In this document: positions 5,740-34,026 of the stretch, one piece after another
Position numbering within the stretch: the stretch's first letter is position 1
Layout: the number at the start of each line of letters is the position of its first letter
Source: an uncultured Chromatiales bacterium
GTDB lineage: Bacteria; Bacteroidota; Ignavibacteria; SZUA-365
Length of the DNA: 64,000 nt
Assembly (NCBI GenBank): GCA_964371045.1
Contig: CAYJMN010000004.1
Location: 59,794 to 123,793 of the forward strand
Reading direction: 5' to 3'
Notes under the pieces: generated by a model
The model's database searches: none
Seen by the model: the letters and a program-made list of their open reading frames with translations, nothing else
What the model was told of the DNA's origin: nothing
Position numbers and translations under genes: made by a program

Positions 5740-7440
5740 ATTTTGATGAGTCGAATACGTGGTACTGCGAATATTGATCCCGTGTCACAAACGAGACACA
5801 CGCGGCTGACTCTGAGCTGAGTGGACGAAAGGGCTCTCGCTACCTACACCGGTTTTATCCGCTGTCACAGTTTCCTTTTCACCAGAATGTTCCGTGTGGT
5901 CAATCCTCCAGCCGCCCACGTTCGTATCGGGCTGAATGAGATGAATGCTCTCTTTACTTAACGGCTTCTTCTCCGAACTCACAATCCTCGCACGATCGTT
6001 CTGCGGCGGCTCGTGGGTATGAAATTATGGACGTACCTATTCTCCTTGTGCGTTACGGAACGAATCATGCTTCTCCGCAGTAGCGGAGTCACCGGACAAC
6101 CTCAGAGGATCATCTTGAGATCTTGCTGCGGTGGCGCACTTCTTTTGACGTCAGGGACGTGCCCTCGTTTCCTCGTGTGTAAAGGAACGAATCATGCTTC
6201 GAGACGCCTCCGAAGAGGGACTTCAAAATTCCAATAATTCTCTTCGCGGCGGCTCCTGCTAATGACATCATTTAAAATCGGCTTGAATCGTCCTGATTTC
6301 GTAAACTCCCGCCCCGAACACAACGAACCCGGCGTCTGGCGCTGGAGATAATGCCCTCTCCGCCCTCTCCTCTGCCCGTCTCCCATCGGTGAGGATGAAG
6401 GGAGATTTTTCTAAATGCCACAAGTAGAACCCCTCTCCTTCTGGGAGAGGGGCAGGGGAGAGGGCAAGCAAGTACGCACGGCTTTCGCTATTCACACACG
6501 ATCCCAGGGAACCACCATGAACATCACTTCGATCCTCGCCCGTGGAGTAAGCTGTGCGCTGAGCGAAGTTTATGCAGTGCTTAAGGCGCAGATTCGGAAG
6601 TTGTTAAGCGCTGGATCGAATTACTTCCCCCTCTTCCTCCCACCTCTCTCGTGAGAGAGGACGGCCGGGGGTCGAAGACCGTAGGTCGGAGACTCGCTGC
6701 GGCGAGGTCGAAAGCCGAAGGCTGTACACTCGCCACGGCGAGGTGAGGGGTGAGCTAGTTTTCTCGAGTCTCCCCGTACGTTACGGAAGCAATCATTCTT
6801 CGAGACGCCGCCGAAGTAAACTCGTGGAAGCATGGACACTCACTCCGCGGCGGCTCCTGTTAATGACATCATGCAAAATGGGCGGAATCCTCATTTTCGC
6901 CTTCATCAACTCACCCCCCCGGCCCCCTGGTAGAGAGGGGGGAGGAAGAGGGGAAAATCAGTGATTTCCGTAGACGAGGCGGATTAAACATGATCGCCGA
7001 TACATAGATCCAACCTGTTGTCATCCTTGAAATGGACCAGCGTACGGTGCTGGTGGGCACACTCAGCATGACGAGCTTGGTTAGCGCGGATCCATACCCT
7101 CATGTCATCCACGAAATGGACCGGTGCGCAGCGCTGGTGGGCACACTCATAGTAACGATGTTGACTACACTCTTCGGAACCAAAAGCCTCCACATCATGA
7201 GCAGCGCTATCGACCATCTGTATCCACTATATCCTCTCCTCAGCGTCTCTGCGCCTCTGCGTCTCTGCGTTGAATTCTTCTCCCTTTGCGATAAAAAATC
7301 AATGAGGATCTGCGTTATCACTCGAGCGTAAGTTTGTGCGGATCGAGATTTTATCGCAGAGAGAAATTTGAGGGCGCATCTCTCTTGACACTCAGCCCGA
7401 AAATGCTGTTATTGGGTAACATAATCCTGTAAACGGCTGG
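5740..7440. repeat. Non-coding repeat desert (~1.7 kb) built from several dispersed repeat modules
   Basis: No ORF longer than 100 aa. It contains copies of GTTACGGAACGAATCATGCTTC (6044, 6182, 6779), GCGGCGGCTCCTG(C/T)TAATGACATCAT (6236, 6843), G/C-rich hairpins CCCTCTCC...GGAGAGGG (6350-6470) and CCCCCGGCCCCCT...AGGGGGGAGG (6610-6660, 6920-6960), and two tandem copies of the GTCATCC...GCGCTGGTGGGCACACTCA element (7024-7075, 7098-7150). It also has the octamer tandem CTCTGCGCCTCTGCGTCTCTGCG (7245-7270). Confidence 0.6.
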
Positions 7441-17928: not shown

Positions 17929-18168
17929 ATGGCTACTTTGACTATCAAGAATGTACCTGACGCGCTCTATCAGCGTCTGAAGGACAGCGCAAAGCGTGAG
18001 CGCCGCAGTATGAACAGTGAGGCACTGCTCTGTCTCGAACTGGCGCTCCGTCGCGTACCCGCGAACAACGACGAGCTGCTGCAGCACATCCGCGGCATCC
18101 GTGCTGCGACGCCTGTTCGTCTCACAGAGAAGATCCGGCGTGCGGCTGTCAGGGATAGCCGGTCATGA
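17929..18168 (+). CDS. vapB: Ribbon-helix-helix (Arc/VapB/FitA-like) antitoxin, 79 aa
   Basis: MATLTIKNVPDALYQRLKDSAKRERRSMNSEAL... is a classic RHH antitoxin N-terminus. A GGAGG lies 7 nt upstream of the ATG at 17929. Its stop overlaps the PIN gene start (ATGA at 18165). Confidence 0.8.
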   Translation: MATLTIKNVPDALYQRLKDSAKRERRSMNSEALLCLELALRRVPANNDELLQHIRGIRAATPVRLTEKIRRAAVRDSRS

Positions 18169-18560
18169 TCGTCGTGGATAATACTATGCTCTGCTATTTA
18201 CTCATCCAGGGAGATTTCACGGAGTTGGCGGAGCGCACCTACGCTGCGGACCCGGACTGGATTGCTCCGCATTTGTGGCTGAGTGAATTCCGGAACGTAC
18301 TGAGAAAATATATCGTCGGAGGCTTTCTCACGCTTGAACAGGCGATGACCAGTGCCGGGGCGGCGGAACTGCTCATGATGGAGAGGTCGTTCAGTGTGAG
18401 CACGGCAGATGTCCTGCTTTATTTATCCGCATCCGGCTGCAGCGCCTACGATTGCGAATATATCGCTCTCGCCAAAACGCTCTCCTTGAAGCTTGTTACA
18501 ACGGACAAAAAGCTGCTGCGTGCGTTCCCCGAGACTGCCGTGCATCCCGGACATTTCTGA
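18165..18560 (+). CDS. vapC: PIN-domain toxin (VapC family), 131 aa
   Basis: MIVVDNTMLCYLLIQ... (an acidic residue near the N-terminus), the size, and the coupling to the upstream RHH gene are typical of VapBC modules. Confidence 0.85.
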   Translation: MIVVDNTMLCYLLIQGDFTELAERTYAADPDWIAPHLWLSEFRNVLRKYIVGGFLTLEQAMTSAGAAELLMMERSFSVSTADVLLYLSASGCSAYDCEYIALAKTLSLKLVTTDKKLLRAFPETAVHPGHF

Positions 18561-19825: not shown

Positions 19826-22800
19826 TCACAATTTCGTAACCCGCCTTACCAGCACGGCATCGCCAAGCAACGCGACGAGATAGTACACGCCTGGCTTGCG
19901 GTCGCGGAGGGAGTGGGTAAATACCGCACCGCCATCCGGCAGGATACCGGTGTGGATGATTTCTGCACGGCCGAGTACATCGTAGAGAGCCAAGGTAACG
20001 GTTTGATTTTCCGCGCCGGTAAGCCCGATGCGCAGCATATCAGCCACTGGTTCGGGGTACACATTCAGCACGGCGCCTTCAGCGACAGGCGGCACGTCGT
20101 TGACATCGAGCACTGCGACGTTGAATGGATCGGACATGGCCGAGCAGCCTTCCGCATTGGTGACCCGGACCTGATAGACGCCGGTTTGCGTCAGCGCGAG
20201 CAGCGGGCCGGTTGCGCCGGGCATGAGAACGCTGTTCCGATACCATTGATACTGATGCGCCGTGTCGGTTCGAATAACATCCCCGAGGCGGCGGATGACG
20301 GGCTTCGCGGGTGACGGTTTCATCGAGACCGTTACGGTATCCGAATTGCCCCAGCAGTTGTCCGTACTGCGGACGCGCACATGATAACTTCCCGCGGCAG
20401 TTACGTCGATGCCGGGCGTTGTTGCACCGGTGCTCCATTCATATTCCGCATAGCTGCCCGTGGTCCGCAGCGTGACCGCTTCTCCTTTGCAGATGGCAAC
20501 AGGATTGCCCGGCGTGATGACCGGCACAGGGAGCTGATACACCGCGACGCGAACCGTGTCGGAACGGCCATACACACCATCGCTGCGACGGACGACGCAG
20601 GAGTAGTCACCTGAACGCTTGACGATGATTTGCTGTGTCTGTTCGCCGCCCATCCAAAGGTACGACGCGTATCCGCTCCCCGCATCGAGAATGACGGAAT
20701 CGCCTTCGCAGAACGCCAGCGGGCCGTTGGCTGTGAGTTGTACATCGAAGCTCTGAGGCGGGAGACCAGGGATGCGCAGTTGGACTTCGCATTTGCTGGA
20801 ATCGGTGTTCGTCGAATATGTCCACACGGTGATGGTGTAGGTTCGCTCCGTCTCGACAGGTGCGTGCAGCAACATCCATGTTACGTTTCCGCTCTGGGTT
20901 GGATTAAGCATCGGGGGTAGCAGATGCTTTGTAAAGCGGTTCGGGGCGTCGGGCGCTGCGAGCGAGAACTCCGGTGGCAGGACAATACTCGTCAACACCG
21001 TGTCCGTTAACATGCCGCCGGTGTTCAGCGCTGTTACGGTGAGTGGAAAGGGCATGGGTGAATAGCGCAGGTTTACTGTATCTGCTGTGATGTTCGGTAC
21101 ATCGATGTCGCATTCGAGCATCGGTCCTGTACGCTGAATGTACACCTTCAGGCAGCATGTCACATCCGGGTAGTTGTCGAAGCTGCTTTGAATGCAAATT
21201 TCGACAGAATCCCCGGAGGTCCGTTTTTTCGCCGCCAGCTGCCAGGTCACTTCCGCAAACATCCCCGAGGCGATATCCGCCGGTGTGGGAGTTTGTGTGC
21301 TAGTGGCAGGCGAAATCAGGCTGACTGCATTCGTGTCCACGATGATTCTGTAGATCGCATTCAGCAGTGTTGTATCGCCGACATTGTCAAAGCGCCCTGT
21401 GACCACGAAGGGATTCGGATAGTAGTCCTTGAGCGTGCGCTTCCACTCCAGGCTCGTCGGGCCGGTGATACCACAGACAGCGTTTGGCTGTTTGGGATAG
21501 ATGCAGATTCTGCCTGTATCGACAATCGGTCTGAAGCACCCCTGCTCAAACTGCGGATTCACTCCGCGAATCTCGCAGCACGTCGTGTCAAAAGGATCCG
21601 ACGCCTTGAACGTAAACTCCATCAAAACGCCGCTCCCGTTCAAGAGCTTGCGGTCCATCACCTGGATCAGCGCGCCCGTCGGTACCGGCGTCACCGAGAT
21701 CGGCAGGCCATCGAGTAGTGTGCTCGGGGTCGTCGACACGCTTTTGAACTGCATACACAAGGGATTGAACTCCAGCGTGAACTGGAAGGGGTAGAACATC
21801 TCGCCGTTGATAGGTGTGAGGAGGGTCAGGGGTATCGTGATGCCGTCACCGCTTTTCGCGACAGCATCGCCGAGCTTCATGTTGAGATTCGAGTATGTCG
21901 ATGAATCCAGGGGGGCGCGGTAGGTTTTTATCTTCGTGTCGGTTCCCCCGCAGAAATCCTTCAACTGCAATTCCACCGTCCGCAGGGCACCGTCCATGCA
22001 ATCATCTTCGTAGGTAATCACACAATCCTGGAAACTCTGCCGAAGTATGCCGAAAATTTCCTGATATATCGCCGCGAGCTGACCGGAATTCGGCGTCTGA
22101 TAGAATTTTCCGCCCGTCAGCTGGGCGATGAGTTCCAGTTCCACCGTATTGATGCCGGTACCAATGCCAACGGTGAATACACGGATTTGGTGGCGGTCGG
22201 CCAGTGCAATAATCTCCGACGGCTGACGGCCGGATGCATTGTCTCCGCCATCGGTCAGCAGGATCACTGCCCGGCACTGGTTCACCCCGTTATTGATCAG
22301 CTCAATCAGGCCAGCGTAGCCGCCGTCCCAGACCGCCGTCGCACCATTGGCAGGAAGCGCATCCACCGCTGAATGCAGCCTGGTCGTGTCCGTAGTCATT
22401 TGCTGCTGGATTATCACCGTCGAATTGAACCATAGCACCGAGGCTTCGTCGATGTTGCCGTCCATTAGATCGATGAAGGCATGGCCCGCCTGTTTCGCGC
22501 CGGCATTGCCGGATCCAATCATCGATCCTGACGCGTCGAACACAAGCGACACCGATATAGCGCAGGGGATGGTGGGATTAGGGCACGACAACGTGAAATT
22601 CTTGACCTCGACGCCGTTCTCGAAAATCCGGAAATCCTGCATCGACATGTTGTACGCCGGATTGCCGTCGCAGCCGACGGAGAAATACAGCTCGATGGTT
22701 GGCCAGTTGACGGTCACCCGTTTGAACGTCAGGTTCGGTTGCGCCTGTACGATCGGCGCGGCGAGACAGATGACAAGCAGAAGCGCGGAATGCCGCCACG

Positions 22801-23251: not shown

Positions 23252-26200
23252 TTACATTTTTGTTACCCGCTTCACCAGCACGGCATCGCCAAGCAACGCG
23301 ACGAGATAGTACACGCCTGGCTTGCGGTCGCGGAGGGAGTGGGTAAATACCGCACCGCCATCCGGCAGGATACCGGTGTGGATGATTTCTGCACGGCCGA
23401 GTACATCGTAGAGAGCCAAGGTAACGGTTTGATTTTCCGCGCCGGTAAGCCCGATGCGCAGTACATCGGTCGCAGGCTCCGGCCAAACGTTCAGCAATCT
23501 ACCTTCTGCGATTGCCGGTTCATGCCCGGTTTCGAGCACGGTGACGCCGAACGGATCGGACATCGCCGGACAGCCCTCTGCATTGGTGACCTGGACCTGA
23601 TATTGTCCCGACTCTGTGACGCTCAGCGACTGGCTGGATGCGGACGGAAGCTGGAGACCGTTTCGGTACCATCGGTACGAAACCGCCGGATCGGTGGACA
23701 ATACATTGCCGTTTCGCTGGACGCCGGGTTTAGGCGGCGACGGTTTTTTCGTTACAACGACAGTATCGGAAAGATTGCGGCAACCGGCGCTATTGCTGAC
23801 CTCAACATAGTAGCTGCCGGCAGTTTTAACTGAGATTCCCGGAGTCATCAGCCCGTTGTTCCACAGGTAGCTCAGGAAACCGCTTCCTACGGAAAGGAAC
23901 ACCGAGTCTCCTTCACAAATCTCCGTCGATCCTGTGATGACCAACCGCGCGTATGGTTTCGGCAGGAAGGTAATCACCACGGTGTCGGAAATCCCGGTGC
24001 ACGTGAGAGAGCTGCTCACCCGTACATAATACGTGCCGGGCGCTGTCACGATTATGCTTGAGTCGGTGCTTCCGTTACTCCACTGGTACGACGGGTAGAT
24101 GCCGCTGACAGACAGATGAAGCGAATCGCCTTCGCATAGCGTTCTCGATCCGATTGGAAATATCCGCGGTGTGAGATTGCGAAGCACTGTGACTACCACC
24201 GTATCGGATTCCCCCATGCAGAAAGGTCTGTCGCCAACACGCACATAATACGCCCCCGATGCCCTCACTATAATGTCCGGATTCGTGCCGCCGTTGCTCC
24301 ATTGGTATGTCTGATAGCTTCCGGAGACGGATAATCGGAGAGAGTCGCCTTCGCAGATCGTCGTCGGTCCGCTGACGTTGAGGCGCGGAGATGGCCTTGG
24401 AGAAACCGTTACCTGAACCGTGTCGGAGTATCCGATGCTTCCGTTTGCCTGTTGCACTGTGCAAAAATACAAACCCGCTGCTGTGATCGGGACGCGCTGC
24501 GTTTGCGGGCCATGCGACCATCGATAGGATGCGTAGCCGTTCCCGGCGTCAAGTATCACGGAATCCCCCTGGCATAATGCGGTCGAACCCTGCGCCGCAA
24601 GTTTGAACGCGAATCTGTTTAGCACATATCCCGGAATGGTAATGTTCACCTCGCATTTTGATGAATCCGTATTCGCCGTTTTCACCCAGACAGTCACGGT
24701 GTAATGCTTATCTGCATCCGAATGGGGATGATGCACCATCCATGCCAGATTTGCGCTCTGACCGGGATTCAGTTGCGACGGTACCATGCTCTTGGTGTTG
24801 CGGTCCGGAGCATCAGGGTATGCGAGTTCGAGATCCGGCGGCAGGATGATGGATGCAAACATCGGTTCGGTCTGCATCAGGCCTGTGTTGTTTGCAGTGA
24901 CCGTAATCGGGAACGGCATCGGATCGTACCCGGAATTCACCGTATCCGCGATAATGACGGGCGCATCAAGCGCACAGTCCACGAGAGGCCCGGTTTGCGG
25001 AATGAACACGTTCGTGCAACATATCACATCAGGATGATTGTCGAACGATGCGGTGATGCAAATCATTGTCGAGTCGCTGCTCGCCCGGCAGTTCGCGGCA
25101 AGCTGCCACACTGCTTCGCTTTCCCCTGCTGGCTGCACATCCGGAGGCGAAGCAGCCTGAACATCGGCCACGGGTGCGGCCAGTCTCAAGGTTGCAGTAT
25201 CGAATGCGATTCTGAAGCGAGCATTGCGTGCTTCCTTGTCACCAACGTTCAGGAGCACTCCCCTGACGGGGAAAGGACTTGGCGTGTAATCCTTCGCCAG
25301 CTTATTCCACGTCAAACCTGGTACACGTTCGATTCCGCAGTAGACTTCGGGGAGTCTGGGAAGAATGCAGATTTCACCCGGAGTAATTACAGGACTGAGG
25401 CAGCCTTGCTCGAACACGGCATTGCTGCCGTAGATACCGCAGCATAGGGTGTCGTCGGGATCGGACGCCCGGAACTGTAATTCAAGGAGCAATCCGCTGC
25501 CGGAAATCAACTTGCGGTCGTTGATACGGATCAGGCTTCGCATGGCAATGGTCGTTACCGACAAGGGCAGGCCTTCGATCAAGGAACCCGGGGGAGTCGA
25601 TACGCTCAGCAGCTTCGCGCACGATGTGTCGTGTTCAAGTGTGAATTCGAACGGAAAAAACATTTCGGCGTTGAGTGGCGTGAGCAGGTTCAGCGGAATC
25701 GTAATCGTGCCGTTGCTTGCAACGCTGCCTCTCCCCAGTTCCAGCGAAAGTGTCCTGAACGTCGAGGTGTCCCTCAAGGCCAGGTACTGCTTTGTTTCCG
25801 TGTCCGTCCCGCCGCAATAATCCTTCAGCCGTAGCTCGACCGTGCGCAGACCGCCGTCCGCGCATTCACGATCATAGGCAATCATGCATTCCCGGAAACC
25901 TGAGGCGACGATTCCGGATATTTCCTGATAGATCGCCGCCAGTTGTCCCGGATCAGCCGTCTTGTAGACCCTTCCGCCCGTCGTCGGTACAACATATTCG
26001 AGCTCGTTCGTGTTGAAATTTGTCCCCAGTGCGATTGTGAACAGACGAATGTGATGCTGTCTCGCCAGCGCCGCATTCATCTGCGCTTCTGCTATGCTTG
26101 AATTATCGTATCCATCCATCATCACGATAAGCGCGCGGTACGGGTTGACTCCGTTGCTGATCAACTCAAGCAGACCTGCATGCACGCACTCCCACATACA

Positions 26201-26704: not shown

Positions 26705-26873
26705 TCACTCCCAGTATGAAAAAATGGCAGGATTGTCAACGTGCGGAGCGCGGAGAGCGTAGAGTGATGCGCACTCGGCGATCTCTGCGATAGAAGGAAA
26801 TCCGCACAATGTGGCCACCTGTAACGACATAAGTCCTTGCTGCTGTGTTCCATTGTGCGGGTCAACTTTTAAT

Positions 26874-26925
26874 CGCCGAGGGCACAGAGGGCGCCGAGGG
26901 CACAGAGGGCGCCGAGGGCACGGAG
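26874..26925. repeat. 18-bp variable-number tandem repeat (CGCCGAGGGCACAGAGGG x ~3) in the paralogue 2 upstream module. The same repeat has about 2 copies upstream of paralogues 1 and 4
   Basis: Direct reading gives 26874-26925 (about 2.9 copies), 22979-23013 (about 2 copies) and 33833-33866 (about 2 copies). A neighbouring 9-mer array CTCGGCGAT has 3 copies at 23159-23185 and 27069-27096 and 2 copies at 33766-33783. Confidence 0.7.
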
Positions 26926-27156: not shown

Positions 27157-30100
27157 TCACAATTTCGTAACCCTCTTCACCAGCACGGCATCGCTGAGAA
27201 TCGCGACGAGATAGTACACGCCGGGCTTGCGGTCGCGGAGGGAGTACATGAAATCCGGCGAATCACCCGCGAGCATTCCTTTGAAAATCACCTCGGTGCG
27301 TCCAAGGATGTCGCAGAGCATCAGCGTCACGGCCTGCGCTTCAGAACGACCAAGGGAAATGTGCAGCGCGTCGCTGGCGGGTTCCGGATACACCAAGAGC
27401 GCGGGACTTCCCGCGATCGGCTGTTCGTCGTCGATGCCGAGTACGGTGACGATGAAATCATCGGAGCATACGGTGCAGCCCTCCGCGTTCGTAACGCAAA
27501 CCTGGTAGCGTCCCGTCCCGGTGAGGACCAGGAATTGATTTGTCGCGACAGACAACTTGACGCCATCTCTGTACCATTGGTAGGCGTGTTCAGGGCCGGT
27601 AGTCAGCACATCGCCATTGCGCTGAATGATGGGCTTCGCGGGAACCGGTTTGGTTGTGACGACGACGGTATCCGAGTAGCCCCAGCAGCTGTCCGCGTTG
27701 CGTACCCTCACATAATATGATCCGGCTGTCCTGGCGGTGATGCTCGCACTCGTTGCTGCGTTGCTCCATTGATACTGCGAAAAAGATCCGACGACACTGA
27801 GCTGTACCGAATTGCCTTCACAGAATGGTATCGATCCGCTGACGGACAGCCTGGGGGCCGGTGTCGGCAGGACAGTTACGTGGATGGTATCGGATATCCC
27901 CCTGCGACCGTCCGGGTGCTGGACGACGCAGAAATAGTCTCCGCTTGTCTCAACCTGAATGCCCCGGGTCTGGCGTCCATTTGACCAGTGATAAGAGGTA
28001 TAGCCCGGGCCTGCGTCGAGGATGACGGATTGACCGTCGCAGAAACGCAAGGCGCCATCGGCCTGGAGTGTCGTCGTGAAATCTTTCGCCGGTAATCCGG
28101 GAATGATAACATCGATTTCACATTTCGACGAATCTCCATCGCGGGTCACAATCCAGACGATCACCGTGTATCTGCGTTCGACTGTTGAATGCGGGTGCGT
28201 GACCATCCATGACGTGCTGTCGGTATCCCCTGGAAACCCAAACCAGGGCATCACTATTTTCGTATGCTGATTCGGAGCGTCGGGTGCGGCCAGTTCAAGA
28301 TCGTTCGGCAGGACGATGGTGGCACGGGCCGAATCCGTATCCGTGCCTCCGTTATTTGTTACCGTGACCTTTAGCGGGAACGGCATTGGCACGTTCCGGA
28401 AAAACAGGCTGTCCGCTATGATTGACGGAGCGTCCAGCGAGCACTCGAGAATTGCCCCTGTCTGCGGTATGAATATCTTCATGCAGCACGTCACGTCGGG
28501 ATGGTTATCAAAACTGCTCCTGATACAGATGTCAATCGAATCGGCGTAGAGTCTAAGCCCTGGTTCGAGCTGCCAGGTCACATCCGTATGTGTCAAGGGT
28601 CCGATATCAGCCGGCGAGAGGACTTGCGTATCCGAGAGGGGCGATACGAGCCGCACCTCCGATGTATCGAAGAGGATTCGGTATCGGGCGTTCAGGGCCG
28701 CCGCATCGCCTGTGTTGCTCACGCGCGTCGTGATGCTGAACGGATTCGGGCTGTAGTCCCTGATATCCCGCCGCCAAAGGAGACGATCGGGACCATTGAT
28801 GTCGCAGGAGATTGACGGCAGTGTGGGGTAGATGCAGATCTCGCCGGGATCGATGACCGGTACGAAACAGCCTTGTTCGAAGACCGGATTCGCACCACGG
28901 ATTTCGCAGCAGGAAGTATCCGATCGATCGATCGTTCGAAACGTGAATTCCATAAGCGTGCCAGTCCCGGCGAGCGGCTTGCGACCCGACACCTCGATCA
29001 GCGCTCCCGCCGCCGTCGGCGTCACCGCGATCGGAAGGCCTTCAAGCAACGAGCCCGATGGGGTCGCGACGCTCTTGAGCTTCACGCAGGATGTGTCGTA
29101 CTTCAGCTCGAAGTGGAAGGGGTAGAACATTTCGCCATTGACCGGTGTGCGGAGATTCATGGGTATCGTGATGTCGGTCCCGCTCATCCCGACAGCATTG
29201 TCAAGCTCCATTGTTAGACTCGAGAAAGTTGACGAATCAAGGGGTGCGCGGTAGGTCTTGGTCTTCGTGTCGGTTCCGCCGCAGAAATCCTTCAATTGCA
29301 GATCCACAGTTCGCAGGGCGCCGTCTTCGCAATCACGATCATACGTGATGACACACTCCTGGAAACCCTGGCGAAGCATGGTGATAATCTCCTGATACAT
29401 CGCCGCGAGCTGGCCGGCGTTCGTCGTCTGATAGAATTTTCCGCCAGTCACCTGTGCGACCAGCTCGAGTTCCACAGTATTGATGCCGGAACCAATGCCG
29501 ACGGTGAACACCCGGATGCGGTGGCGGTTGGCCAGCGCGATGATCTCTGAAGGCTGCCGCGTCGAGGAATTGTCGCCGCCGTCCGTCAGCAGTATGACGG
29601 CGCGGCATTGATTCACGCCATTGTTGATCAATTCGATCAAGCCTGCGTAGCCGCCGTCCCACACCGCCGTCATTCCACTCGCTGGCAGAGCGTCCACCGC
29701 CGAATGCAGCATGGGTTTGACTGTTGTCATCTGTTGATATGGCGTCACGACAGACGTGAACCAGATTACCGTCGCTTCATCGATCACGCCGTCCATCAGG
29801 TCGATGAACGCGTGGCCAGCCTGTTTGGCGCCCGCATTGCCTGAACCACTCATCGACCCGGATGCGTCAAACACGAGTGACACCGAGATAGCACATGGGA
29901 TGGTGGGATCGGGACACCACAGCGTGAAGTCCTTTACCTCCACGCCGTTTTCGTAGATGCGGAAATCCTGTTTCGACATGTTGAACGCTGGATTGCCGTC
30001 GCAACCGACCGAGAAATACAGCTCGACCGTCGGCGAGCTCGCTGTCACGCGTTTGAACGTCAGGTTCGGCTGCGCTTGCAGCAGCGCAAGCGGCGCGGTG

Positions 30101-30168
30101 AGACCGATGATAATGATAAGCGCGGCGAATGCCAGCGTCTTCAGGGTGAATGTCCCGGAACTCTCCAT
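27157..30168 (-). CDS. Paralogue 3 of 5 (~1003 aa from ATG 30168, i.e. MESSGTF...), same architecture
   Basis: The ORF finder opens at TTG (30192). The ATG at 30168 is preceded by GAGGAG. The N-terminal ~315 aa are identical to paralogue 4. Confidence 0.9.
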   Translation of the reverse strand: MESSGTFTLKTLAFAALIIIIGLTAPLALLQAQPNLTFKRVTASSPTVELYFSVGCDGNPAFNMSKQDFRIYENGVEVKDFTLWCPDPTIPCAISVSLVFDASGSMSGSGNAGAKQAGHAFIDLMDGVIDEATVIWFTSVVTPYQQMTTVKPMLHSAVDALPASGMTAVWDGGYAGLIELINNGVNQCRAVILLTDGGDNSSTRQPSEIIALANRHRIRVFTVGIGSGINTVELELVAQVTGGKFYQTTNAGQLAAMYQEIITMLRQGFQECVITYDRDCEDGALRTVDLQLKDFCGGTDTKTKTYRAPLDSSTFSSLTMELDNAVGMSGTDITIPMNLRTPVNGEMFYPFHFELKYDTSCVKLKSVATPSGSLLEGLPIAVTPTAAGALIEVSGRKPLAGTGTLMEFTFRTIDRSDTSCCEIRGANPVFEQGCFVPVIDPGEICIYPTLPSISCDINGPDRLLWRRDIRDYSPNPFSITTRVSNTGDAAALNARYRILFDTSEVRLVSPLSDTQVLSPADIGPLTHTDVTWQLEPGLRLYADSIDICIRSSFDNHPDVTCCMKIFIPQTGAILECSLDAPSIIADSLFFRNVPMPFPLKVTVTNNGGTDTDSARATIVLPNDLELAAPDAPNQHTKIVMPWFGFPGDTDSTSWMVTHPHSTVERRYTVIVWIVTRDGDSSKCEIDVIIPGLPAKDFTTTLQADGALRFCDGQSVILDAGPGYTSYHWSNGRQTRGIQVETSGDYFCVVQHPDGRRGISDTIHVTVLPTPAPRLSVSGSIPFCEGNSVQLSVVGSFSQYQWSNAATSASITARTAGSYYVRVRNADSCWGYSDTVVVTTKPVPAKPIIQRNGDVLTTGPEHAYQWYRDGVKLSVATNQFLVLTGTGRYQVCVTNAEGCTVCSDDFIVTVLGIDDEQPIAGSPALLVYPEPASDALHISLGRSEAQAVTLMLCDILGRTEVIFKGMLAGDSPDFMYSLRDRKPGVYYLVAILSDAVLVKRVTKL

Positions 30169-30389
30169 CACATTCTCCTCAATTGAAATCAATCTACCAG
30201 GCTATTACGCCCCACTGTGATGCGAAGGCGCGAAGGAGAAATAAACGCAAAGTCGCAGAGGAGAGGAGAATTTAACGCAGAGACGCAAAGATGCAACGTC
30301 GCAAAGGAGAATTAAACATTCGAAAAAACCCCTCTGCGCCTCTCCGCCTCTGCGTCTCTGCGTTTCATTCTTCTCTCCGCGTCACCGCG

Positions 30390-33300
30390 TTACATTTTCG
30401 TCACGCGCTTCACCAGCACGGACTCGCCAAACACGGCGACGAGATAGTACACGCCGGCGTCGCGGCTGCGGAGTGAATAGCTGAATTCCGTGGCGTCTCC
30501 TGAAAGTCCGCCGCTGTATATCACCTCTGCCCGACCGCGGATGTCGTAGAGCACAAGGGTCGCCGCCCGGGCTTCGCAGTGACGGAGGGCGATGCGCAAG
30601 ACGTCGGTTGCAGGCTCGGGCCAAGCTTCAAGCGCGGCGCGTTCCGCAATCGGCATTTCGTCGCCGATGCCGAGTAAGGTGACGTTGAACGGATCCGACA
30701 TAGCGGAGCAGCCTTCGGCGTTGGTGACCTGTACCTGGTAGACACCGGTTTGCGTCAGCGCGAGCAGCGGGCCGGTTGCGCCGGGCATGAGAACGCTGTT
30801 CCGATACCATTGATACTGATGCGCCGTGTCGGTTCGAATAACATCCCCGAGGCGGCGGATGACGGGCTTCGCCGGAGCGGGCTTCATGGTGACCGTCACG
30901 GTGTCCGAGATGCCCCAGCAGTTCTCCGCACTGCGTACGCGCACATGATACCGTCCGGCGGCAGTTACATCGATGTCGGGCGTCTTTGCGCCGGTGCTCC
31001 ATTCGTATTCGGCAAAACTGCCGGTGGTTCGCAGCGTAACAACATCGCCCTTGCAGATCGAAACAGGATTGCCCGGCGTGATGACGGGCTTCGCCGGATC
31101 AGGCTTCATGGTGACCGTCACGGTGTCCGAGATGCCCCAGCAGTTCTCCGCACTGCGTACGCGCACATGATACCGTCCGGCGGCAGTTACATCGATGTCG
31201 GGCGTCTTTGCGCCGGTGCTCCATTCGTATTCGGCAAAACTGCCGGTGGTTCGCAGCGTAACAACATCGCCCTTGCAGATCGAAACAGGATTGCCCGGCG
31301 TGATGACGGGTATCGGGAGGGGATGCACCGTCACACGCACCGTGTCGGAACGGCCATAAAAACCGTCGGCGCGACGGACAATACAAGAGTACTCACCCGA
31401 ACGCGTAACGGAGATCTGTTGCGTCCTCTCGCCGCTTTGCCAATTGTATGACGCGTATCCGCTTCCTGCATCGAGAATGACGGAATCGCCTTCGCAGAAT
31501 GTCAGTGGCCCGGTGGCTGTGAGTTGTATATCGAAGTCCTGTGGCGGGAGACCGGGAATGCGGACCGAAATCTCACATTTCGATGAATCGGCATTCGAGG
31601 CGAAGGTCCACACCGTTACCGTGTAATTCCTCTCGGCCGTTGTCGGCGCGTGCTGCAGCATCCACGGAATACTCCCACTCTGTTGCGGTACGAGCACCGA
31701 GGGCATGATGCGTTTTGTATATCGGTCGGGTGCGTCGGGTGCCGCCAGGGTCAGCTCCGGTGGCAATACGATCGAGGCCCACACAGTGTCCGTGCGTGTG
31801 CCGCCCGTGTTTATGGCCGTAACCGTGAGCGGGAACGGCATCGGTGTGTAACGGAGCTGGATGCTGTCCACCGTGATCGGCGGCACATCGACCGCGCACT
31901 CGAGCACGGGTCCGGCCGTCGGAATAAACACACGCATTGCGCAGAGTACATCCGGGTAGTTGTCGAAGCTGCTGAGAATGCCGATATCAACCGAATCCGC
32001 AACTGTACGCCGCTTTGCCGCGACTTGCCATGACACGTTCGCATAGCCGCCAGGATCGATATTCGACGGGCTTATTACCTGCGTTTCAGTAGCAGGTATA
32101 AGCAGCTGAATGTCGGAACTGTCATAGATTATCCTGTACCGCGCGTTTTGCAGGGGTGCATCTCCGGGATTGTCGCAGCGTCCGATAATGACGAAGGGAT
32201 TCGGCTGGTAGTCGCCGAGTGATCGTCTCCACATCAGGCTCTTTGGTCCGGTGATGTCACAAAAGGCGCTGGGAGTTTTCGGATACACGCAGATCCTGCC
32301 GGTATCGATGACTGGTCTGAAGCAGCCCTGTTCAAAAAGGGGATTCACCGCCAGAATATCAGAGCAGCAGGTATCCGCTCTGTCGCTGGCCCTGAACGCA
32401 AGATTCAGAAGCAGACCGCTGCCGTTTAGCAGCTTTCGGTCAAGCAACTCTATCGTGGCGCCTGTGGAAATCGGCATTATCGTGATCGGCACACCCTCCA
32501 GCAGGGACCCCGTCGGCGCCGTTGCGTTTTTGAGCTGCACGCAGGATGTGTCGTACTCCAGCTCGAAGTGGAAGGCGTAGAACATTTCGCCATTGATCGG
32601 TGTGCGGAGATTCATGGGTATCGTGATGTCGGCCCCACTCTTCCCTACAGTGTCGCCAATTTCCATTGTTAGATTCGAGAAAGTTGACGAATCAAGGGGT
32701 GCGCGGTAGGTCTTGGTCTTCGTGTCGGTTCCGCCGCAGAAATCCTTCAATTGCAGATCCACAGTTCGCAGGGCGCCGTCTTCGCAATCACGATCATACG
32801 TGATGACACACTCCTGGAAACCCTGGCGAAGCATGGTGATAATCTCCTGATACATCGCCGCGAGCTGGCCGGCGTTCGTCGTCTGATAGAATTTTCCGCC
32901 AGTCACCTGTGCGACCAGCTCGAGTTCCACAGTATTGATGCCGGAACCAATGCCGACGGTGAACACCCGGATGCGGTGGCGGTTGGCCAGCGCGATGATC
33001 TCTGAAGGCTGCCGCGTCGAGGAATTGTCGCCGCCGTCCGTCAGCAGTATGACGGCGCGGCATTGATTCACGCCATTGTTGATCAATTCGATCAAGCCTG
33101 CGTAGCCGCCGTCCCACACCGCCGTCATTCCACTCGCTGGCAGAGCGTCCACCGCCGAATGCAGCATGGGTTTGACTGTTGTCATCTGTTGATATGGCGT
33201 CACGACAGACGTGAACCAGATTACCGTCGCTTCATCGATCACGCCGTCCATCAGGTCGATGAACGCGTGGCCAGCCTGTTTGGCGCCCGCATTGCCTGAA

Positions 33301-33623
33301 CCACTCATCGACCCGGATGCGTCAAACACGAGTGACACCGAGATAGCACATGGGATGGTGGGATCGGGACACCACAGCGTGAAGTCCTTTACCTCCACGC
33401 CGTTTTCGTAGATGCGGAAATCCTGTTTCGACATGTTGAACGCTGGATTGCCGTCGCAACCGACCGAGAAATACAGCTCGACCGTAGGCCAGTTGACCGT
33501 GACGCGTCTGAACGTCAGGTTCGGCTGCGCATGGAGCTGCGTAAGCGGCGCGGTGAGACAGATGATAATGATAAGCGCGAAAAGCCATCGCGTTGTTGTG
33601 CTAAAATTGCCGGACCTCTTCAT
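30390..33623 (-). CDS. Paralogue 4 of 5 (~1077 aa from ATG 33623, i.e. MKRSGNF...). It contains an internal perfect 74-aa domain duplication
   Basis: The ORF opens at TTG (33662). The ATG at 33623 is preceded by GGAGGGTG. vWA, repeats and CTD as in the others. Confidence 0.9.
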   Translation of the reverse strand: MKRSGNFSTTTRWLFALIIIICLTAPLTQLHAQPNLTFRRVTVNWPTVELYFSVGCDGNPAFNMSKQDFRIYENGVEVKDFTLWCPDPTIPCAISVSLVFDASGSMSGSGNAGAKQAGHAFIDLMDGVIDEATVIWFTSVVTPYQQMTTVKPMLHSAVDALPASGMTAVWDGGYAGLIELINNGVNQCRAVILLTDGGDNSSTRQPSEIIALANRHRIRVFTVGIGSGINTVELELVAQVTGGKFYQTTNAGQLAAMYQEIITMLRQGFQECVITYDRDCEDGALRTVDLQLKDFCGGTDTKTKTYRAPLDSSTFSNLTMEIGDTVGKSGADITIPMNLRTPINGEMFYAFHFELEYDTSCVQLKNATAPTGSLLEGVPITIMPISTGATIELLDRKLLNGSGLLLNLAFRASDRADTCCSDILAVNPLFEQGCFRPVIDTGRICVYPKTPSAFCDITGPKSLMWRRSLGDYQPNPFVIIGRCDNPGDAPLQNARYRIIYDSSDIQLLIPATETQVISPSNIDPGGYANVSWQVAAKRRTVADSVDIGILSSFDNYPDVLCAMRVFIPTAGPVLECAVDVPPITVDSIQLRYTPMPFPLTVTAINTGGTRTDTVWASIVLPPELTLAAPDAPDRYTKRIMPSVLVPQQSGSIPWMLQHAPTTAERNYTVTVWTFASNADSSKCEISVRIPGLPPQDFDIQLTATGPLTFCEGDSVILDAGSGYASYNWQSGERTQQISVTRSGEYSCIVRRADGFYGRSDTVRVTVHPLPIPVITPGNPVSICKGDVVTLRTTGSFAEYEWSTGAKTPDIDVTAAGRYHVRVRSAENCWGISDTVTVTMKPDPAKPVITPGNPVSICKGDVVTLRTTGSFAEYEWSTGAKTPDIDVTAAGRYHVRVRSAENCWGISDTVTVTMKPAPAKPVIRRLGDVIRTDTAHQYQWYRNSVLMPGATGPLLALTQTGVYQVQVTNAEGCSAMSDPFNVTLLGIGDEMPIAERAALEAWPEPATDVLRIALRHCEARAATLVLYDIRGRAEVIYSGGLSGDATEFSYSLRSRDAGVYYLVAVFGESVLVKRVTKM
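30857..31300. repeat. Near-perfect 222-bp x 2 in-frame tandem duplication inside paralogue 4, duplicating one 74-aa SprB/Ig-like module
   Basis: 30857-31078 and 31079-31300 are identical except for about 3 nt (GAGCGG versus GATCAG), giving PVITPGNPVSICKGDVVTLRTTGSFAEYEWSTGAKTPDIDVTAAGRYHVRVRSAENCWGISDTVTVTMKP(D/A)PAK twice. Confidence 0.85.
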
Positions 33624-34026
33624 CACACCCTCCACGGCGAATAAGAAGATATAATGATACAATTGTATAAAGAAAGAATTCTAATGTCAAGACGTTGCAG
33701 AAAAGCGAAGCGCAGAGCGCAGCGAGCGATGCGCCCTCAAATTTCTCTCTGTGCCCTCGGCGATCTCTGCGATAAAAGGAGATCCGCACAATCTGGACAA
33801 TCGCAGTAAGACAAGGCCTCGTTGATTTTTATCGCCGAGGGCACAGAGGTCGCCGAGGGCACGGAGATATATATAAATGTCTCATTTACTTGGGTCTGCG
33901 GCTGTCCGGGGTCTTAACATCGAAAATCGTCCCGTCTTCGCTTTCGTTTACCGACGGTTGTGGCATGTACCGTTGATGCCTCGGCGGGCGTTCCGCAATC
34001 AAAAATCGTCACTCGTCACTCGTAAA

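Follow-up and report, generated by a model that had tools for sequence, protein, structure and literature searches.

The stretch of DNA analysed here (the window) comprises 64,000 nucleotides (nt) of contig CAYJMN010000004.1 (positions 59,794 to 123,793) from the assembly GCA_964371045.1 of an uncultured Chromatiales bacterium, which is placed in the GTDB lineage Bacteria; Bacteroidota; Ignavibacteria; SZUA-365. Five tandem paralogues on the minus strand, P1 to P5, occupy 19.8-37.1 kb of the window, and two of them, P3 and P4, are perfectly identical over a tract that covers their von Willebrand factor type A (vWA) domain. As discussed below, this perfect identity is in our view likely to be a product of short-read assembly, laid over an older gene conversion between the two genes.

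From its N-terminus, P3 consists of a predicted signal peptide, an N-terminal beta-sandwich, a vWA domain with a metal ion-dependent adhesion site (MIDAS), a second beta-sandwich, immunoglobulin-like (Ig-like) repeats and a predicted type A C-terminal sorting domain of the type IX secretion system (T9SS). All five paralogues possess a hydrophobic leader, which ends in ...QAQP in the paralogue alignment, and a Pfam VWA match above cut-off (PF00092; 38.1 bits in P3 and 37.9 bits in P4, cut-off 23.8). In P3 this match spans amino acids (aa) 97-258, or nt 29395-29880, while a scan against NCBIfam delivered sub-threshold matches to vWA families only. The MIDAS residues of P3 are intact (D101, S103, S105, T167 and D196; DxSxS...T...D) and are the same in the two haplotypes of the tract described below, although metal binding is only predicted. 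The head module is the best-conserved part in the alignment of all paralogues. An AlphaFold model of aa 31-365 of P3 (mean predicted local distance difference test score, pLDDT, 89.5) consists of two beta-sandwiches with a vWA Rossmann fold between them, and Foldseek matched it to vWF A3, integrin I domains and bacterial vWA proteins with E-values of 1e-10 to 1e-15. The same Rossmann-type fold and flanking beta-sandwiches are found in the Foldseek hits 4fx5, ArnB (8s05/5a8j), ITIH1 (6fpy), vWF A3 (1atz), Mfa5 of P. gingivalis (6tnj), the vWFA domain of LapA (9no5) and BatB (3ibs). However, the solved vWA structures share only 10-24% sequence identity with P3 and differ from it in its long stalk of Ig-like repeats and its predicted T9SS sorting domain. 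In the Ig-like repeats of each paralogue, the matches to Ig_2, Ig_7 and cohesin-like profiles all stayed below cut-off. The sorting-domain profile TIGR04183 gave 23.4 bits in P4 and 21.0 bits in P3 (cut-off 23) and PF18962 (Por_Secre_tail) 19-22 bits, below its cut-off of 27; with scores near cut-off, the sorting-domain match sits at the extreme C-terminus in five of five paralogues. We infer that the five tandem genes encode secreted, adhesin-like proteins.

The identical tract is an exact direct repeat of 811 bp with an offset of 3455 (Table 1), and it encloses the entire Pfam VWA match. An earlier note, made from the letters of the window, had described a block of about 0.9 kb with 100% identity over the whole vWA domain; exact alignment bears out the repeat and its cover of the domain, yet at a size of 811 bp. 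The note was also right in that the signal peptides and C-terminal halves of both genes differ, since the leaders (aa 1-46) are distinct and the C-terminal two thirds share 60% nt identity. Its description of flanks that drop to unrelated sequence, however, does not hold. The tract is bordered by about 94 bp (30031-30124) on one side and 137-145 bp (29075-29219) on the other, both with about 88% identity, and beyond these flanks P3 and P4 remain homologous at 55-65% nt identity. In the assembled sequence, P3 and P4 differ at 28 sites of the full high-similarity tract thus delimited, and this number rises to 78 (92.6% identity) if haplotype A is compared with haplotype B. The limits of the full tract lie at about aa 15 and about aa 362, those of the 811-bp tract at aa 47 and aa 317. 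They are located inside the signal peptide, inside the N-terminal beta-sandwich and past the second beta-sandwich, and none coincides with a domain border in Pfam or in the structure model. The proposal that the breakpoints define the MIDAS-bearing domain as a recombining cassette unit is thus without support.

Table 1. Coordinates (in the window) of the shared tract of P3 and P4, its sub-blocks and the five vWA paralogues
Feature	Coordinates	Strand	Remarks
P3	27157..30168	-	1003 aa; open reading frame (ORF), Pfam, start codon from sequence, 1003-aa gene calls in related contigs
P4	30390..33623	-	1077 aa; architecture of P3 plus one more 74-aa Ig-like unit; ORF, Pfam
P3 copy of 811-bp tract	29220..30030	-	Codons 47-316; probable collapsed-repeat consensus
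P4 copy of 811-bp tract	32675..33485	-	Codons 47-316
Full high-similarity tract in P3	29075..30124	-	1,050 bp; P4 partner 32530-33579; BLAST cross-matches, identity profile, synonymous divergence
Sub-block 1	29931..29971	-	5 A/B sites (aa 80 D/N); independent switching; P4 partner +3455
Sub-block 2	29572..29773	-	24 A/B sites (aa 133-175, adjoins MIDAS T167); P4 partner +3455
Sub-block 3	29302..29497	-	21 A/B sites (aa 225-289); splits at a 53-bp identical run only in ~5x contigs; P4 partner +3455
P4 internal tandem	30880..31310	-	222-bp (74-aa) Ig-like unit duplicated; 209 bp identical, 30880-31088 = 31102-31310
P1	19826..22831	-	1001-aa paralogue; ORF, Pfam
P2	23252..26704	-	~1149-aa paralogue with extra Ig-like units; ORF, Pfam, gene call
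P5	34027..37080	-	1006-aa gene call; ortholog of Q1 in the closed relative GCA_027493955.1

The decisive evidence comes from the same locus in other assemblies, which we recovered by exact-protein look-ups from 17 assemblies of the European Nucleotide Archive (coverage 5x-149x, contig names in SPAdes format). A comparison of contig L001 with the window gave 108 differences over 23,012 positions. Of these, 50 belong to the P4 tract and recur, at an offset of 3455, as 50 in the P3 tract, six are paired at an offset of 222 in the internal tandem of P4, and only two lie elsewhere. Two haplotypes of the tract can thus be told apart, A (the window, which is A throughout) and B, which are separated by 50 nt and 19 aa differences in three sub-blocks. 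Both genes are contained in the window and in 11 other contigs, and in each of these the two copies of the tract match without a single difference, but the tract itself occurs as seven mosaics among these 12 contigs (AAA-AA, BBB-BB, BBA-AA, BAB-BB, ABB-BB, ABA-BB and AAA-BB). As a genomic property, the 100% identity is therefore not borne out, the tract itself varying between assemblies at up to 50 sites. The protein level gave a matching picture: two clusters at 90% comprised seven P3 variants (24 contigs) and 16 P4 variants with the corresponding mosaics, and for P3 seven of the eight possible combinations of sub-blocks are present. Over the 24 contigs, A and B are found at 11:13 in sub-block 1, 9:15 in sub-block 2 and 14:10 in sub-block 3; the sub-blocks are pairwise independent (Fisher p 0.2-1.0), and mosaic contigs (18 of 24, 75%) are as frequent as expected for three fair and independent coin flips. 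Such a pattern requires that each sample contain A and B at a ratio of about 1:1, which is what a pair of paralogous copies within the same genome would provide. For most contigs the run of identity is 811 bp long; it reaches 909 bp in L007 and exceeds 2.2 kb in two chimeric contigs of 5x coverage.

A donor of the bases that separate A from B was sought among P1, P2, P5 and the three paralogues Q1-Q3 of a closed relative without any overall signal; P1, for example, agrees with A at 20 sites and with B at 19. In a patch of 22 bp (29476-29497), A matches P1 at 10 of 11 variable sites and B matches P2 at 7 of 11, which could reflect micro-conversion from other family members.

We modelled a genome in which P3 carries B and P4 carries A and listed the shared k-mers at k=33, 55 and 77. 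With k=55, the region that can collapse runs exactly from 29220 to 30030 and has exactly three bubbles (29302-29497, 29572-29773 and 29931-29971), which are the observed sub-blocks. The other values fit less well: sub-block 1 would stay uncollapsed at k=77, and two additional splits, at identical runs of 53 bp and 44 bp, would arise at k=33. The observed switch points are identical runs of 157 and 74 bp, the 53-bp run was used in three contigs of about 5x only, and no switch at the 44-bp run was found in the contigs compared. The edges of the tract, whose sharpness had been read as a mark of recent recombination, hence coincide exactly with the outermost 55-mers shared by two copies that are about 94% identical. 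Further contigs bear signs of an ambiguous graph. L016 terminates exactly 55 nt inside the tract, the 24,055-bp contigs begin at the edge of the internal 209-bp repeat of P4, and L014 and L015 (5x) are chimeric, a gene with the P3 leader running through the tract and then on into the downstream part of the P4 sequence for more than 2.2 kb.

Taken together, we consider it likely that the perfect 811-bp identity is a collapsed repeat which was traversed twice, with its bubbles resolved at random, on top of an older conversion from P4 to P3; this reading is drawn from contigs. The real copies of P3 and P4 would then probably differ at about 50 sites, with 93.8% identity over 811 bp and 92.6% over 1,050 bp. 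In a de Bruijn graph at k=55, the two copies would share four stretches of 59-157 identical bases, and the region between the outermost shared 55-mers would collapse to a single path with three bubbles that carry the differences between the paralogues. An assembler of the metaSPAdes type would project each bubble onto one of its branches, and because both branches would have equal coverage, the choice would effectively be random. If the loop of repeat, intervening sequence and repeat were then walked, the same consensus would be spelled twice, the tract would be identical by construction, its edges would be the outermost shared k-mers, and the window would represent one of eight possible mosaics, the one that is A throughout. 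The earlier note had itself rightly flagged assembly collapse as the main risk.

The process has a documented counterpart. In metaSPAdes, bulge collapse extends to larger bulges than in SPAdes, the diverged copy of a long repeat is projected onto its consensus, and strain paths from before masking serve to cross repeats that exceed the insert size (PMC5411777). The likeness to our locus is that diverged copies longer than k form bulges, one branch is kept and a single consensus is traversed (PMC5411777). In contrast, the bulges of that study are strain variants, while those at our locus would be paralogous copies within one genome, as seen from an assembler that was itself deduced. Coverage of 1:1 and random choice are expected here because the branches are taken to be two paralogues of the same genome.

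Several observations weigh against this explanation. Both the assembler and k were deduced from contig names, the switch-point pattern and one contig end, and the collapse was read from contigs across assemblies, so that depth, allele ratio and phase derive from these and not from reads. Branches of about 250 nt would have to lie within the bulge-length limits of metaSPAdes, which reportedly they do. Real homologous recombination favours longer identical stretches as well, and the switch-point pattern by itself is thus not specific to an artefact. Moreover, in the P4 of L007 and the P4/P3 of L015, the downstream flank (equivalent to 29103-29219 of the window) has P3-type bases in P4 at the first 12-14 paralogue-specific sites; these chimeras switch at identical runs of 20 bp, for which bubbles at k of at least 21 do not account. 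Read-correction artefacts or real heterogeneity are possible origins of these flank switches. Finally, two sub-strains might conceivably be mixed at about 1:1 in all samples.

Beneath the artefact, the synonymous divergence (dS) of the two genes points to a real event. Even in the reading that maximises their divergence (A against B), P3 and P4 have a dS of 0.163 in the tract but of about 2.0 in the remaining gene. The C-terminal flank (aa 318-362), which was never collapsed, gave 0.151; this agrees with the value of the tract and fits a single event over the whole of about 1 kb. For other pairs of paralogues, dS of the same region amounts to 1.0-3.0. The direction can be read from a comparison with P1: the pair P4-P1 is concordant (1.05 in the tract, 1.01 in the remainder), whereas the pair P3-P1 is discordant (1.05 and 2.11). 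Outside the tract, P3 is equidistant from all paralogues, and within it P3 resembles P4 and P1. Consequently, P3 is the likely recipient and P4 the donor. We suggest that an internal P4 patch of about 1.05 kb, from the core of the signal peptide to about aa 362, was once copied into P3 by non-reciprocal homologous recombination, and that the copies have since diverged to a dS of about 0.15-0.16, which corresponds to a difference of about 6% within the central 811 bp and of about 7.4% across all 1,050 bp. We thus infer a real, moderately old, internal conversion from P4 to P3. Of the recent conversion or unequal crossover proposed in the earlier note, non-reciprocal recombination therefore stands (dS 0.15-0.16 against about 2.0), but its recency does not. 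The ratio of nonsynonymous to synonymous divergence (dN/dS) between A and B is about 0.23, which gives no sign of diversifying selection.

One alternative explanation is that the identity is real. It would result from very recent conversion or ongoing concerted evolution, with A and B as alleles of co-existing strains that are shuffled and re-homogenised in each lineage. That P3 equals P4 in every contig would follow directly, A and B are genuine sequences in the samples, and the family shows further mosaic similarity between P1 and P4 and between P1 and P2. However, at least seven recombinant haplotypes would be needed, each homogenised in both genes, while the other 21 kb or so carry about two single-nucleotide polymorphisms (SNPs), and the polymorphism would have to stop exactly at the duplicated tract. 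A and B would further have to occur at about 1:1 with independent sub-blocks in 24 contigs, although a major strain should win all bubbles together, and the agreement of switch points and limits with k=55, like the contig that stops 55 nt inside the tract, would be left unexplained. We thus regard real identity as improbable. Its strongest form, a natural population that shuffles two haplotypes of the head module and rapidly re-homogenises P3 and P4, appears very improbable to us; if true, the shuffling of A and B would represent unusually rapid concerted evolution or switching on the ligand-binding vWA head of T9SS adhesins. A third paralogue elsewhere was also considered as the source of haplotype B and was rejected, as coverage of 2:1 would make A win consistently, unlike the 50:50 choices seen.

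Other readings concern the event itself or the genes. By unequal crossover or fusion, P3 could be a hybrid gene composed of the 5' part of P4 and the 3' part of another paralogue instead of carrying a conversion patch. The tandem arrangement, the varying size of the array (five paralogues here against three in the closed genome) and a clear downstream breakpoint at about 29075-29083 speak for it. Yet a single crossover leaves one junction, while a second, upstream breakpoint lies within the gene: the first 15 or so codons of P3 and the intergenic region upstream of it are not P4-like, and dS rises to 0.46 over aa 1-46 against 0.15-0.16 in the tract. With its two junctions inside the gene, at about aa 15 and about aa 362, the patch favours gene conversion, and we regard a single unequal crossover as unlikely. 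The earlier note had named a mis-assembled duplicate of a single gene as the finding that would overturn its view. Chimeras from re-traversal of the loop do exist in the low-coverage contigs L014 and L015, but every contig of at least 6x coverage has both genes, in an unchanged order, with their own leaders and with C-terminal parts that are 60% identical (dS about 2), and the closed relative carries several tandem paralogues as well. That only one gene exists is consequently hardly credible. The same can be said of purifying selection on a conserved vWA domain as the only cause of the similarity. The head module is indeed the most conserved part of all paralogues and the low dN/dS of A against B would fit, but synonymous divergence is low too (0.15-0.16 compared to 1.0-3.0 in other paralogue pairs), and the similarity does not stop at the vWA domain but also takes in adjoining domains and some of the leader.

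Besides the tract, the array contains further repeats, two of which (the internal tandem of P4 and a tract shared by P1 and P2) behave across assemblies much as the 811-bp tract does. The duplicated 222-bp units of P4 (Table 1) always share the same one of two variants of three SNPs (K/T at 'STGAKTPD') in other assemblies, independent of the vWA mosaic, and some assemblies collapse the tandem to one unit, which yields a P4 of 1003 aa; the real number and sequence of the units are uncertain. P1 and P2 share an exact tract of 188 bp (19848-20035 = 23274-23461) over most of the predicted T9SS C-terminal sorting domain. Three other assemblies have one P1-specific mismatch in it, at 19895, and its exactness in the window may again be a popped bubble. 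The leaders of P1 and P2 are 77-79% identical. An exact tract of 128 bp between P1 and P4 (20181-20308 = 30745-30872) is stable in all assemblies checked; around it, the C-terminal Ig-like repeats of the two genes are 80-90% identical (about 20.0-20.9 kb in P1, about 30.6-31.5 kb in P4). A single clade unites P1 and P4 with Q3 of the closed relative, and the family is mosaic overall.

Some elements were observed between the genes. An imperfect hairpin at 30260-30378, between the P4 stop and the P3 start, has arms of 48 nt with 77% complementarity and a loop of 23 nt; it is rich in CGCAGAG/CTCTGCG motifs, and similar inverted repeats are found at 33741-33872 and 26768-26886. Exact intergenic matches of 38-42 bp occur 3' of the stops of P2, P3 and P5 (23131-23189, 27059-27116 and 33728-33793), with an inverted copy about 16 kb away at 7357-7382, and resemble a dispersed element of the repetitive extragenic palindromic (REP) type. 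A scan of the array for promoter and terminator consensus sequences performed no better than on shuffled sequences. The array is followed by a divergently oriented protein of 1083 aa with a T9SS sorting domain match. A PIN-domain toxin (131 aa, 18165-18560) and, upstream of it, a FitA-like ribbon-helix-helix (RHH) antitoxin (79 aa) adjoin the array according to gene calls in L001 and L003.

Homologues are confined to metagenome-assembled genomes (MAGs) of uncultured Bacteroidota and Ignavibacteria. The closed 5.24-Mb Bacteroidia MAG GCA_027493955.1 (L035, 4421730-4444741) has a locus syntenic with 12.8-40.6 kb of the window, including a sorting-domain protein of 1083/1084 aa, the vWA array, a protein of about 210 aa and a resistance-nodulation-division (RND) efflux pump (1024 aa). 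Its array comprises three paralogues, Q1 to Q3, compared to five here, and thus the array expanded or contracted. A contig scan with P3 alone as query found no relative, and with the alignment of five paralogues only distant MAG homologues were found, none of them of the same species. A search of 21 loci from other genomes, the closed relative among them, gave no near-identical tract between tandem paralogues and at most about 80% over 1.7 kb, and the similarity of P3 and P4 is therefore lineage-specific. Contigs of other MAGs (L018, L020, L022, L023, L027, L029 and L033) often end within genes of this family, and that of L029 breaks off close to where the head module ends (query residues 37-307). 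Genes of this vWA family commonly break short-read assemblies. A literature search on T9SS, vWA and gene conversion delivered papers on human VWF only.

Interlocus gene conversion between tandem surface-protein genes is known from babA/babB of Helicobacter pylori and from the opa genes of Neisseria. P3 and P4 resemble these systems in a low-dS internal patch within deeply diverged paralogues, an asymmetry of donor and recipient, and a mosaic family. In contrast to them, nothing at our locus points to switching that is still under way, to phase variation or to silent cassettes, the event dates to a dS of about 0.15, and the organism is an uncultured environmental member of the Bacteroidota outside any context of host immunity. 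It also differs from a cassette system of the pilE/pilS kind, as each of the five copies in the window is a full-length ORF that has a leader and a sorting domain of its own; truncated vWA cassettes were not found among the repeats of the window.

Our analysis calls for caution, as short-read metagenome assemblers can make razor-edged exact repeats longer than k from paralogous copies that are about 94% identical, and the 'breakpoints' of such repeats are the outermost shared k-mers rather than recombination junctions. If the tract of P3 and P4 were taken at face value, the event would be misdated as very recent, its boundaries would be misplaced, and a wrong protein would be assigned to one or both genes, with 19 amino-acid positions near the MIDAS affected by the collapse. 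Once the artefact is set aside, the locus offers nothing out of the ordinary, only an older internal conversion from P4 to P3 within a tandem family of secreted, vWA-containing, adhesin-like proteins that is expanding in an uncultured member of the Bacteroidota.

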